DNA of 64,000 nt from the NCBI RefSeq assembly GCF_035084215.1, contig NW_027139442.1, positions 10,478,001 through 10,542,000 on the forward strand, given 5' to 3'. A program made the position numbers and the translations under genes. Every line of letters starts with the position of its first letter. Position 1 is the stretch's first letter. Shown in pieces: positions 44,596 through 50,338 of the stretch. The stretch is from Heptranchias perlo (Eukaryota). The notes under the pieces were generated by a model that was not told the origin of the DNA, did not search any database, and saw only the letters and a list, made by a program, of their open reading frames with translations.

Positions 44596-44918
44596 TTCAA
44601 CAATCTCACAAACACTTTCACAAAGAATGAATGACCGGGGAAACAATGACCAATTTCAGGTCATCAAATAACAGTTTCATGAAAATCTCATTTCCCTCAA
44701 GCAATTTAAGAACCCCCTCTCTTTATAATCTCCATTATTTCCAACTCCTCAGCTCAAATCTCAAGCTGTTTCACATTCCGGTTCATTCTCTGATCTGCCT
44801 GTAAACGGGCGGGAATTAAGCCGCGGTCATTGTTTTCCACATAGAATCATAGAAGTTACAACATGGAAACAGGCCCTTCTGCCCAACATATCCATGTCAC
44901 CCAGTTTATACCACTAAG

Positions 44919-47900
44919 CTCGTCCCAATTGCCTGCACTTGGCCCATATCCCTCTATACCCATCTTACCCATTTAACTGTCCAAATGCTTTTTAAAAGAC
45001 AAAATTGTACCCGCCTCTACTACTGCCTCTGGCAGCTCGTTCCAGACACTCACCACCCTTTGAGTGAAAAAATTGCCCCTCTGGACCCTTTTTTATCTCT
45101 CCCCTCTCACCTTAAATCTATGCCCCCTCGTTATGGACTCCCCTACCTTTGGGAAAAGATTTTGACTATCTACCTTATCTATGCCACTCATTATTTTATA
45201 GACTTCGATAAGATCACCCCTTAACCTCCTACTCTCCAGGGAAAAAAAGTCCCAGTCTGTCTAACCTCTCCCTGTAAGTCAAACCATCAAGTCCCGGTAG
45301 CATCCTAGTAAATCTTTTCTGCACTCTTTCTAGTTTAATAATATCCTTTCTATAATAGGGTGACCAGAACTGTACACAGTACTCCAAGTGTGGCCTCACC
45401 AATGCCATGTACAACTTCAACAAGACATCCCAACACCTGCATTCAATGTTCTGCCCAATGAAACCAAGCATGCTGAATGCCTTCTTCACCACCCTATCCA
45501 ACTGTGACTCCACTTTCAAGGAGCTATGACTCTGAACTCCCAGATCTCTTTGTTCCATAACTCTCCCCAATGCCCTACCATTAACGGAGTAGGTCCTGGC
45601 CCGATTCGATCTACCAAAATGCATCACCTCACATTTATCTAAATTAAACTCCATCTGCCATTCATCGGCCCACTGGCCCAATTTATCAAGATCCCGTTGC
45701 AATCCTAGATAACCTTCTTCACTGTCCACAATGCCACCAATCTTGGTGTCATCTGCAAACTTACTAACCATGCCTCCTAAATTCTCATCCAAATCATTAA
45801 TATAAATAACAAATAACAGCGGATCCAGCACCGATCCCTGAGGCACACCGCTGGACACAGGCATCCAGTTTGAAAAACAACCCTCTACAACCACCCTCTG
45901 TCTTCTGTCGTCAAGCCAATTTTGTATCCAATTGGCTACCTCACCTTGGATCCCATGAGATTTAACCTTATGTAACAACCTACCTTGCGGTACCTTGTCA
46001 AATGCTTTGCTGAAGTCCATGTAGACCACGTCTACTGCACAGCCCTCATCTATATTCTTGGTTACCCCTTCAAAAAACTCAATCAAATTCGTGAGACATG
46101 ATTTTCCTCTCACAAAACCATGCTGACTGTTCCTAATTAGTCCCTGCCTCTCCAAATGCCTGTAGATCCTGTCCCTCAGAATAACCTCTAACAACTTACC
46201 CACTACAGATGTCAGGCTCACTGGTCTGTCGTTCCCAGGCTTTTCCCTGCCGCCCTTCTTAAACAAAGGCACAACATTTGCTGCCCTCCAATCTTCAGGC
46301 ACCTCACCTGTAGCGGTGGATGATTCAAATATCTCTGCTAGGGGACCCGCAATTTCCTCCCTAACCTCCCATAACGTCCTGGGATACATTTCATCAGGTC
46401 CCGGAGATTTATCTACCTTGATGCGCGTTAAGACTTCCAGCACCTCCCTCTCTGTAATATGTACACTCCTCAAGACATCACTATTTATTTCCCCAAGTTC
46501 CCTAACATCCATGCCTTTCTCAACCGTAAATACCGATGTGAAATATTCATTCAGGATCTCACCCATCTCTTGTGGTTCCGCACATAGATGACCTTGTTGA
46601 TCCTTAAGAGGCCCTACTCGCTCCCTAGTTACCCTTTTGCCCTTTATGTATTTGTAGAAGCTCTTTGGATTCACCTTTGCCTGATCTGCCAAAGCAATCT
46701 CATATCCCCTTTTTGCCCTCCTGATTTCTCTCTTAACTCTACTCCGGCAATCTCTATACTCTTCAAGGGATCCACTTGATCCCAGCTGCCTATGCATGTC
46801 ATATGCCTCCTTCTTATTTTTGACTAGTGCCTCAATCTCCCGAGTCATCCAAGGTTCCCTACTTCTACCAGCCTTGCCCTTCACTTTATAAGGAATGTGC
46901 TTACCCTGAACCCTGGTTAACACACTTTTGAAAGCCTCCCACTTAACAGACGTCCCTTTGACAGCCAACAGACTCTCACAATCAACTTCTGAAAGTTCCT
47001 GTCTAATACCATCAAAATTGGCCTTTCCCCAATTTAGAATTTTAACTTTTGGGCCAGACCTATCCTTCTCCATAGCTATCTTAAAACTAATGGAATTATG
47101 ATCACTGGTCCCAAAGTGATCCCTCACTAACACTTCTGTCACCTGCCCTTCCTTATTTCCCAAGAGGAGGTCAAGTTTTGCCCCCTCTCTAGTCGGGACA
47201 TCCACATACTGAATGAGAAATTCCTCCTGAATACACTCAACAAATTTCTCTCCATCCAAGCCCCTAATGCTATGGCTGTCCCAGTCAATGTTGGGAAAGT
47301 TAAAGTCCCCTACTATTACCACCCTATTTTTCTTGCAGCTGTCTGTAATCTCCTTACATATTTGCTCCTCAATTTCCCGTTGACTATTTGGGGGTCTGTA
47401 GTACAATCCTATCAAAGTGATCTCTCCCTTCTTATTTTTCAGTTCTACCCATATAGACTCAGTGGGAGAACCCCTGGATATATCCCCTCTCACTACTGCC
47501 GTGATGTTCTCCCTAATCTAGAACGCAACTCCCCCTCCTCTCTTACCTCCTGCTCTATCTTTCCTATAGCATCTGTACCCTGGAACATTGAGCTGCCAGT
47601 CCTGCCCCTCCCTTAGCCATGTTTCAGTAATAGCTATAACATCCCAGTCCCATGTACCCATCCATGCCCTGAGTTCATCTGCCTTGCCCATCAGACTTCT
47701 TGCATTGAAATAAATGCAGTTTAATCTAGACTTCCCTTGGTCTTTGCCCTGCTTTCTCAGAACATCTGTCCGGTCATGTTCTGTAGAATCTCCCTTACTG
47801 CCTTTTGTTTCTGTCACCACTTTATTTCCATCTGACTTCGTGCATCGGTTCCCATCCCCCTGCCATATTAGTTTAAACCCTCCCCAACAGCACTGGCAAA

Positions 47901-48024
47901 CACTCCCCCTAGGACATTGGTTCCAGTCCTGCCCAGATGCAGACCGTCCAATTTGTACTGGTCCCACCTCCCCCAGAACCGGTTCCAATGGCCCAGGAAT
48001 TTGAATCCCTCCCTCTTGCACCAT
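44919..48024 (-). pseudogene. CR1 ORF2 (APE endonuclease + RT), disrupted
   Basis: Compared with the second copy: TTG>TAG at about 47518, +1 A in the run at about 45242-45248, and missense GNYRP>GNDRP and SVLGP>SVLDP. Confidence 0.9.
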
Positions 48025-48803
48025 CTCTCAAGCCACGTATTCATCTTAGCTATCCTGTCATTCCTACTCTGACTAACCCGTGGCACTGGTAGCAATCCTG
48101 AGATTACTACCTTTGAGGTCCTACTCTTTAGTTTAACTCCTAACTCCCTAAATTCAGCTTGTAGGACCTCATCCTGTTTTTTACCTATATCGTTGGTGCC
48201 GATATGCACCACGACAACTGGCTGTTCACCCTCCCCCTCCAGAATGTCCTGCAGCCGCTCCGAGACATCCTTGACCCTTGCACCAGGGAGGCAACATACC
48301 ATCCTGGAGTCTCGGTTGCGTCCGCAGAAACGCCTGTCTATTCCCCTTACAATCGAGTCCCCTATCACTATAGCTCTGCCACTCTTTTTCCTGCCCTCCT
48401 GTGCAGCAGAGCCAGCCACGGTGCCATGAACCAGGCCACTGCCACCTTCCCCTGGTGAGCCATCTCCCCCAACAGTATACCTGTTTTGGAGGGAGATGAC
48501 CGCAGGGGACCTCTGCACTGCCTTCCTACTCTTCCTCTGTCTGTTGGTCACCCATTCACTATCTCCCTCAGTAATTTTTATCTGCGGTGTGACCAACTCA
48601 CTGAACGTGCTATCCACGACTTTCTCAGCATCGCGGATGCTCCAAAGTGAGTCCATCCGCAGCTCCAGAGCCGTCAAGCGGTCAAACATTAGCTGCAGCT
48701 GGACACTCTTCCCGCAGGTGAAGGAATCAGGGATACAGGAAGGAGCCCTGAATTCCCACATCCCACAAGAGGAACATGACACGGCCCTGGGATCTCCTGC
48801 CAT
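47868..48803 (-). CDS. CR1 ORF1 protein (zinc-finger/leucine-zipper N-terminus + SGNH esterase)
   Basis: CSSCGMW..CGK, a coiled-coil segment, and the SGNH blocks IGDSIVR, HIGTND and DGLHL. Confidence 0.9.
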   Translation of the reverse strand: MAGDPRAVSCSSCGMWEFRAPSCIPDSFTCGKSVQLQLMFDRLTALELRMDSLWSIRDAEKVVDSTFSELVTPQIKITEGDSEWVTNRQRKSRKAVQRSPAVISLQNRYTVGGDGSPGEGGSGLVHGTVAGSAAQEGRKKSGRAIVIGDSIVRGIDRRFCGRNRDSRMVCCLPGARVKDVSERLQDILEGEGEQPVVVVHIGTNDIGKKQDEVLQAEFRELGVKLKSRTSKVVISGLLPVPRVSQSRNDRIAKMNTWLERWCKREGFKFLGHWNRFWGRWDQYKLDGLHLGRTGTNVLGGVFASAVGEGLN

Positions 48804-49124: not shown

Positions 49125-49520
49125 GGCTCGGCTCTTCTCAGCGCTCTGAAATCCCGCCTTTTATCGGACGCTCCCTCCGCTCGGCTCCTCTCAGCGCTCT
49201 GAAATCCCGCCTTTTATCGGACGCTCCCTCCGCTCGGCTCCTCTCAGCTGTTCTCAGCGCTCTGAAATCCCGCCTTTTATCGGATGCTCCCTCCGCTCGG
49301 CTCGGCTCCTCTCAGCTGTTCTCAGCGCTCTGAAATCCCGCCTTTTATCGGACGCTCCCTCCGCTCCACTCCTCTCAGCTCCTCTCAGCTGTTCTCAGCT
49401 CTCTGAAATCCCGCCTTTTATCCGACGCTCCCTCCGCTCGGCTCGGCTCCTCTCAGCTGTTCTCAGCGCTCTGAAATCCCGCCTTTTATCGGACGCTCCC
49501 TCCGCATTGCTCGGCTCCTC
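49125..49520 (-). repeat. Tandem CpG-rich monomers (about 54-73 bp, 6 copies) in the CR1 5'UTR
   Basis: ctctgaaatcccgccttttatcggacgctccctccgc at about 49144, 49197, 49260, 49328, 49401 and 49469. Confidence 0.9.
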
Positions 49521-49612
49521 ACATCGTTCACCTGAGGAAGGAGGTAGCCTCCGAAAGCTTGTGAATTTAAAATAAAATTGCTGCACTATAACTTGGTGTT
49601 GTAAAATTGTTT
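49521..49612 (+). mobile_element. Penelope-like terminal repeat without the tail
   Basis: Matches 18301-18385 and 41158-41240. Confidence 0.85.
49526..49566 (+). ncRNA. Minimal type-I hammerhead ribozyme motif
   Basis: GUUCAC-CUGAGGA-A-GGAGG-UAG-CCUCC-GAAA-GCUU-GUGAAU. Confidence 0.82.
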
Positions 49613-50338
49613 ACAAAGAATGAAGAAATCCTCCCGCACTCGCCCTTCTTATACTTTCTGGACGACTGCAGTGGGGGCACTTGTGATTGGTCCATGTGTT
49701 CTCAACCTCATTGAGCTGTTCGTTAAACCAATCAGAGGGCTGTTTTATTCACCAATCAATAGCCGGCAATGAGAAAAGGGCGGAAAATACAGACCAGAAC
49801 CGTTTTTTTGAAATTTGAAAAGCCCGCCAATATATTTGTAACACAAGAAGCGGATTTAGTAAATAATTTCGCGTAAAAGCAAATATTTAGACATCTCATC
49901 TTTTACTCTGTTATTCCACATTTCTCGTTACAACTTCCAGAATCTGTTTCAACCCGCTTCATTCTCCGTTCGCTTTCAATCGGGCCGGAATAAAGCCTCA
50001 TTTTGTCCCGAATAATTAACAAACAAACGTGAGAAGGAGAAAGAAATAACCGAACTCGAATCCACCGCCTGAAAACGGCTCTGAAGTGTCAGACGCGGGG
50101 GAAGGGGCGGAAAATGAACTGAAATGAGAGGTTCAGGGACACGTTTTTGTTTATTGGCTGTAAATTGAACATCGACACACAGATTATACCCGGCAGTTAT
50201 TGTGAGAATCTTCCCGATATCAAGAGAAATCACAAAAGGACAAGTTATAGAGAGACAGTTAGTGTCAAACTATCTTATCTACCGTAAAATGATTCCATCC
50301 AGAGGTATCGGTACAGCGTCTTCAGAGAGACTGTGGGT

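Follow-up and report, generated by a model that had tools for sequence, protein, structure and literature searches.

In a 64,000-nt window of the Heptranchias perlo genome (G000:C1275:10478001-10542000 of a 3.25-Gb genome; the window is the whole stretch analysed, and all coordinates are in its numbering), a composite insertion separates an H2A gene from its TATA-like box. This is probably a short insertion of a very abundant Penelope-like retrotransposon, the inner end of which was sealed by copying neighbouring DNA, in this case a piece of the spacer between the histone genes H4 and H3. The target site duplication (TSD), the tailless element arm, the inverted spacer copy, the microhomologies at the joints, the later arrival of a CR1-type long interspersed nuclear element (LINE) and the recurrence of host copies in sister insertions are all seen directly. 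The window otherwise contains histone clusters, a zinc-finger gene and LINE copies.

Structure of the insertion and its element

The insertion is bracketed by two + strand copies of the 12-mer ACAAAGAATGAA, at 44620..44631 and 49613..49624, which bears out the 12-bp TSD proposed in a first-pass annotation of this stretch. The left copy occupies nucleotides 25-36 ahead of the H2A ATG, close to or at the beginning of the 5' untranslated region, and the TATA-like box lies 23 nt beyond the right copy. The same 12-mer is present once each at the empty H2A paralogs at 26713 and 19555, and four paralogous clusters (L045-L048) run from 44631 directly to ~49615 and thereby display the empty site itself.

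Adjoining the left TSD copy is a templated filler of 18 nt (44632..44649, +) composed of two short pieces of 42706-42723 in spacer + sense. The first-pass annotation had described about 19 nt of scrambled filler from this source; the origin in two spacer pieces stands, and the length is corrected to 18 unshared nt, or 19-21 nt if bases common to the TSD and the adjacent fragment are counted. There follows a 189-bp inverted copy of the H4-H3 spacer (44650..44838, -), for which sequence comparison with the reverse complement of 42706-42893 gives 184/189 identical positions, with 4 mismatches and 1 gap, in line with the roughly five differences first reported. The donor stretch (42706..42893, +) lies 1,739 bp from the insertion site, has no intron and contains ATGACC twice, at 42714-42719 and 42878-42883.

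The Penelope arm starts within the last bases of this fragment. As sister arms start with ...CATTTCCACATCG, the TTTCCACAT at 44834..44842 (+) is the arm start, and its TTTCC, common to element and spacer, forms a microhomology of 5 nt. A near-full-length LINE (44843..49519, -), 98% identical to a copy at 52574-56416, is nested inside the first bases of the arm as a later insertion, with a weak 4-5-bp duplication, CACAT, at 44838-44842 and 49520-49524. We take this LINE to be of CR1 type from its ORF1/ORF2 translation (ORF, open reading frame) and its 3' octamer repeat. The remainder of the tailless arm, a Penelope pseudo-long terminal repeat (pLTR; 49525..49612, +), contains a putative minimal hammerhead motif, has ACAA in common with the TSD and ends in AATTGTTT(A), the end point that the first-pass annotation had correctly matched to the neighbouring insertion at 41047. 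The stretch 49520-49612 is identical at 3 unrelated loci (L083-L085). Microhomology at the successive joints of the insertion measures 4, 5, 2+4, 2 and 2 nt. The structure, from TSD through filler, inverted spacer copy and nested CR1 to tailless arm, is confirmed as real.

Misassembly, raised as a possible refutation in the first-pass annotation, is an unlikely source of this structure and was rejected, as the junctions recur at diverged loci. The left junction is found at C1499, identical over 231 nt and 99.6% alike over 10 kb, a copy that is perhaps the other haplotype, and at C1275:2.20 Mb, where identity is 98% and 2 changes fall in the filler and 0 in the long fragment. A further copy at C1275:5.19 Mb has kept the arm and CR1 and has lost the H2A gene and the host fragment, together with the 3' end of the CR1, through a 700-bp deletion corresponding to window 44192-44893 (L139:3684, G000:C1275 ~5.193 Mb). 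A copy predating the CR1 was sought at three other insertion-bearing loci, all of which carry the CR1. None of the public contigs listed bridges the junction, a neutral result that is uninformative at such family depth. In each of two runs, taken to be RNA by guess, one contig combines the H2A leader (44600-44631) with a 43-nt spacer-like piece (44773-44815), the two lying on opposite strands ~180 nt apart, perhaps in another rearranged paralog.

The identification as a Penelope-like insertion, made in the first-pass annotation, is supported by the TSD, the arm and a parent ORF with a reverse transcriptase (RT) domain. The genome contains 14,231 exact copies of a 20-mer from the arm and 0 of a reversed control, and 4,083 of a 34-mer of this arm's subfamily. 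Long element copies continue upstream into an ORF, and the idea that the host fragment might be a regular part of the element, also raised in the first-pass annotation, was rejected because these long copies have other sequence upstream. The search for an autonomous partner that it had suggested led to an uninterrupted 902-aa ORF, counted from the first Met (L215:2003-4708, -), in which Pfam recognises an RT domain (RVT_1, E 3.3e-10; score 40.5 bits, cut-off 29.6). This ORF is contiguous with the same arm in L144, and the tail that some arms carry directly precedes the ATG of the element ORF. At L215 the ORF forms an inverted pair with a 738-codon open stretch. The linker C-x4-C-x2-C (PCRGNLCKTC) is present in L246, L205, L251 and L208, one Cys being lost in L215. 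A C-terminal motif, VVYL...WYIGET...R, was picked by eye in sister copies and is a putative GIY-YIG-like end; Pfam gave no GIY-YIG match to the parent ORF at E<=1. In the literature, a CX2-5CxxC linker between RT and endonuclease (EN) defines the Neptune/Nematis type (PMC8557442). By the definitions of that paper, the predicted autonomous partner is probably of Neptune/Nematis type, with RT, CX4CxxC and a putative GIY-YIG-like end.

The arm is predicted to fold with stems I and II of a minimal hammerhead, matching the description in PMC4209133. Stem I is formed by 49527-49531/49561-49565, with CTGAGGA at 49532-49538 and GAAAGCTT at 49553-49560. An Rfam scan gave no match to a hammerhead family, and the label rests on the motif and the predicted fold. 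Matches to the Rfam families mir-616 and mir-927 were below the gathering score and were set aside, as they reflect the palindrome at 41047. It was also considered whether the arm starts at the hammerhead cut, which was rejected, as the start lies ~45 nt upstream of the predicted cut.

Two sister insertions of the same family lie in the window. One at 41047..41242 (no single strand) has two arms, tailed on - and tailless on +, within the TSD AACATTGTGTCA; the other, a single tailed arm at 18293..18424 (+) with a 10-bp TSD, interrupts an H2B coding sequence. Elsewhere, in another cluster, three Penelope arms (L141:4749-4851, 7509-7727 and 8324-8417; G000:C1456 ~5.345 Mb) lie <=4 kb upstream of an H4 gene, one of them with a short fold-back at its 5' joint. 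As the arms within one insertion differ at single bases (CTGAGGA vs CTGACGA) in L127/L128 and L129/L130, the inverted arm was likely copied from a separate template rather than from the first cDNA.

Host copies among sister insertions

Sister insertions were surveyed at 146 loci picked by exact anchor motifs from the first 49 Mb of contig C1. These yielded 125 distinct units, of which 98 had a TSD call, and 93 remained after removal of five doubtful cases, namely L147, L206 and L221, whose TSD calls lie >2 kb away and are likely due to chance, and the tandem arrays L118 and L202. Locus L152 was retained with no capture counted, its long run being a tandem-array artefact, and fillers of 15-74 nt with no outside donor (L151, L161, L171, L181, L216, L249) were left uncounted.

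The 93 insertions comprise 65 two-arm tailed, 3 two-arm tailless, 11 single tailed and 14 single tailless forms. The first-pass annotation had placed the host fragment at the H2A start in the position of a primary element copy, a claim that does not hold against these 14 TSD-bounded single tailless arms. TSDs are most often 12 bp long (47/98) and measure 12-14 bp in 83/98. In 80/177 arms, 4-7 element bases are kept upstream of the anchor; the insertion at the H2A start keeps 6 and thus belongs to this modal class.

Copies of host DNA are present in 5/93 insertions (L172, L199, L224, L250 and L252), so that the arrival of a host fragment within the same TSD, as first proposed for the H2A locus, recurs as a phenomenon. 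The captured pieces measure 94-229 bp and are 96.6-100% identical to donors 142-913 bp from the site; four are direct and one is inverted, and four are on the left and one on the right. A sixth capture, L077, was found among 30 loci of a sister subfamily. In L250, 133 bp of host DNA fill the space between a solo tailless arm and the TSD, an exact analogue of the H2A insertion. In L252, the arm passes into an inverted donor via 6 shared nt and a short re-primed piece is added, and in L172 and L077 scrambled pieces are found at the end remote from the priming arm. In each of the three captures tested (L250, L252 and L224), the top match elsewhere in the genome is the local donor; that of L224 is a repeat with 1,750 candidates, 40 of which were scored. 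As a control, a local copy was found for 2/195 flank pieces taken just outside the TSDs, both in tandem arrays. In the 27/125 units with no TSD call, the 5' side shows no local copy except a tandem array and element arms. In total, about 5 per 100 sampled sister insertions are patched with local host DNA.

Proposed order of copying and rival explanations

As element sense is on the + strand, the bottom strand is the cDNA, the synthesis of which began at the right TSD copy, with ACAA in common. This bottom strand continues leftward as spacer + sequence, and therefore, on a single pass, its template would be the spacer minus strand, with the arm made first. The first-pass annotation had instead proposed that an H4 read-through RNA was retro-copied before a switch to element RNA. 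That mechanism is not supported. These two RNAs lie on opposite strands; H4 read-through RNA is + strand and gives the top strand, and therefore its copy cannot continue on element RNA. According to a rule stated for L1 chimeras, a single-pass template switch requires the host piece to be in the sense of the element RNA (PMC13174262). For H4 read-through RNA, the host piece here is antisense to the element.

On the reading that we favour, in which the inner end was sealed from nearby DNA, the element endonuclease would cut the two strands at positions staggered by 12 bp where H2A begins. From the right, the bottom-strand end would prime on element RNA at the tailless start site through 4-nt pairing, and RT would copy ~97 nt, ending where most arms stop. 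The free cDNA end, GGAAA, would then pair with TTTCC on the spacer minus strand 1.7 kb away and be extended by 184 nt, after which it would release and fold back, with GG on CC and a 7-nt loop, to add 4 nt. Re-priming of the folded end at the other ATGACC (6 nt) and then at GGGG would give the filler, and the cDNA would join the left target end through 2 nt (TT). At a later time the CR1 would have landed 4 nt inside the arm, and the cluster would have been duplicated. Either the element RT or a host repair polymerase could have carried out the spacer extension, the fold-back and the joining.

The letters at the far joint are consistent with this order. The bottom strand of the long copy ends in ...ATGACC TGAAATT GG and its next letters are TCAT, the predicted fold-back product; GGTCAT then matches the other ATGACC and continues to TGTTT, and CC re-primes in GGGG to give CCGGTCA. 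Of the 139 GG end-points in 41900-43600, 4 allow such a fit, and three of these belong to this one motif; the test may be taken as moderate support for a fold-back. In a second CR1 in the window, the 5'-truncated end at 56392-56431 is a perfect 19-bp hairpin with a 2-nt loop, consistent with a fold-back of the cDNA end adding 15 nt, and such end repair is therefore not special to Penelope here.

In order to place the donor, the fragment was compared with 31 spacer paralogs, at least 40 being present in the genome. The closest is the spacer beside the 2.2-Mb copy of the insertion, with 4 differences (185/189), followed by those of the window and C1499 with 5 each and the remainder with 6-17, and in a spacer tree the fragment falls inside the C1275/C1499 clade (support 100/98). 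The segment 41633-44631 of the window is recombinant, its H4 half resembling clusters with the 41047 insertion and its H3-H2A half clusters with the 44632 insertion; the H4 half sides with an empty-site lineage at 17/19 informative sites and the H3-H2A half with the 2.2-Mb copy at 22/34. The fragment has 4 private changes and the arm 0 relative to its closest sisters. Error-prone synthesis was considered as the cause and could not be established, 4/189 vs 0/93 being too few. Two of the four changes (44672-44681 and 44820-44825) perfect near-palindromes (TTTCATGAAA, CCGCGG), which a strand-switch mutation might explain.

Several observations weigh against sealing from the adjacent spacer. The tree leaves the donor within the C1275/C1499 clade undecided, similarity falls to 96.3% for the spacer next to the 5.19-Mb copy, and the histone cluster of the window is itself a mosaic. 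The donor distance of 1.74 kb exceeds that of the other six captures, and captures from distant donors could hide among the 27 units with no TSD call. Within the spacer alone the fold-back fit is weaker (3/29 end-points), and the second piece of the filler lacks one T. Where the long copy has C, the filler retains the donor G, and therefore either the change came later or the filler was taken from the donor itself. Synthesis of the top strand, switching between both donor strands, can give the same product, and the data here do not separate a DNA template from a local nascent antisense RNA. As the donors of the sister captures are local and in both orientations, a DNA template fits better.

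An RNA template leads to the main rival explanation, itself unlikely, in which the arm was made first and RT, on reaching the 5' end of the element RNA, jumped to a transient antisense transcript made upstream of the H3 promoter. It would have run off the end of this transcript near 42893, and a fold-back would have followed. Strand, order, 5-nt microhomology and local origin all fit this course, and 42893 lies ~180 bp upstream of the TATA-like box of H3 at 43072. Divergent transcripts commonly start upstream of promoters at about such a distance. Template jumps to other RNAs are, in addition, known for R2 and L1 (PMC11371274, PMC13174262). However, the sister captures come in both orientations, on both sides, from <1 kb and in some cases from repeat fragments, so that a fitting RNA would have to be present locally every time; in two unstranded runs, RNA only by guess, spacer pieces reach ~1% of the H2A-leader depth.

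Twin priming, in which the right end copied element RNA and the left end H4 read-through RNA until the two cDNAs met at TTTCC, is the only workable form of the first-pass proposal, and we consider it quite improbable. The family does insert from both ends, with 68/93 units two-armed, purified Penelope protein cuts and extends both strands (PMC11167929), twin priming is the ascribed cause of antisense host pieces in L1 chimeras (PMC13174262), and the orientation of the fragment fits. Yet the filler, placed between left primer and fragment, would on this course be made first, and its template must be the minus strand, which a + RNA cannot supply; the start of the donor is also ~370 nt beyond the H4 stem-loop. 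If the RNA were diffusible, any of at least 40 paralogs of the spacer might have been its source, but it is the adjacent ones that match best.

Still less probable are two separate events, with a plain solo arm followed by an unrelated break at the arm edge that was repaired with a local templated insertion. Fold-back and templated insertions do arise at ordinary breaks (PMC11724301), and the contrast between the 4 private changes of the fragment and none in the arm would suit such a history, but the TSD is intact, the arm ends where arms usually do and is joined there through microhomology of the element end, and captures occur in 5/93 insertions compared to 2/195 flank pieces. Finally, 3' transduction by a CR1 that sat at 42706 of some spacer paralog and carried downstream spacer along, as might be suggested by the fragment directly following the CR1 3' end in CR1 sense and by the CR1 duplication of only 4-5 bp, is largely refuted, as 40/40 scored spacer paralogs align unbroken across 42706, the first 9 arm bases separate the fragment from the CR1, and the 12-bp TSD has the modal length of the Penelope family.

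Known systems and meaning for the family

The element resembles the EN+ Penelope-like elements of Neptune/Nematis type (PMC8557442, PMC11167929) in its RT, CX2-5CxxC linker and putative GIY-YIG-like end, and equally in a pLTR with an optional ~40-nt tail, an inverted 5'-truncated second arm and two 3' end points. Two priming sites and extension on two strands have been described for Penelope protein in vitro (PMC11167929). The present case differs in the locally copied DNA at the joint, which is not described in the portions of those two papers considered. In Adineta vaga, host sequence has been found inside Penelope TSDs (PMC3846280), but there kilobase genes or spacers lie between direct pLTRs, and movement in trans to new sites was the reading given. 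The piece seen here measures 189 bp, has its source at a distance of 1.7 kb and sits at the inner end of one arm with a fold-back filler.

There are likenesses to other systems as well. L1 templated insertions (bioRxiv 10.1101/2024.08.27.596794) and L1 insertions with a local inversion or inverted duplication (bioRxiv 10.1101/2024.12.14.628481) likewise contain copied non-element genomic DNA of <250 bp, and the causes given are pairing of the cDNA end with nearby DNA or self-annealing of break ends. The L1 templates typically lie <=15 bp from the site, in 22 cases from a pipeline not aimed at them, whereas the donors here lie 142-1,739 bp away and captures reach ~5% of sampled insertions. In the 'snap-back' and 'extra template' 5' junctions of R2 (PMC11371274), the cDNA 3' end also primes on itself or on nearby target DNA; these were engineered insertions into rDNA in cultured cells, and where their template was RNA it was nearly always U6, an abundant RNA made at a distance, in contrast to the local donors here. 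Fold-back insertions have also been reported at plain breaks in yeast (PMC11724301). The passages of bioRxiv 10.64898/2026.07.22.740005 considered contain nothing on capture, and a literature search, mostly of openly readable main texts, yielded no report of Penelope insertions patched with local DNA. Published precedents exist for the capture of host sequence by Penelope and for locally templated inserts in L1 and R2, and the H2A case is a further member of this known kind of junction repair.

For the H2A gene itself (44206..44595, -), the insert has cut the coding sequence off from its promoter. The gene has 4 amino-acid changes relative to the empty-site paralog L045; the insertion-bearing copies share two changes (TAEI to TSEF), each with further ones, and empty-site paralogs have 0-2 differences from L045. 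From these changes the insertion-bearing copy is probably dead or decaying. A degenerate H2A paralog at 8731-9126 has a diverged leader that lacks the exact 12-bp target. The single locus is of little weight, with one of at least 40 histone clusters having lost an H2A copy. It is also no evidence for retro-copying of histone transcripts by Penelope, and the host-sequence mobilisation by a Penelope RT envisaged in the first-pass annotation reduces to a 189-bp local duplication with no distant site.

The wider meaning lies in how Penelope insertion is completed, beyond the cutting and priming to which the in vitro work is confined (PMC11167929). Patched joints are a record of cDNA ends left unattached for a time sufficient for pairing with DNA at distances of hundreds to ~1,700 bases. 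Since these subfamilies have at least 14,231 arms, the patching lends itself to counting across the genome. As a more tentative proposal, which we hold to be possible and on balance rather doubtful, the free cDNA end would in ~1/20 insertions search up to ~2 kb of flanking chromatin and copy 100-230 bp, with DNA or nascent RNA as template and the telomerase-like RT of the element as the enzyme. If such copying at ~1/20 by the element RT is true, the family would keep supplying this genome with short local duplications, numbering in the hundreds and including pieces of promoters.

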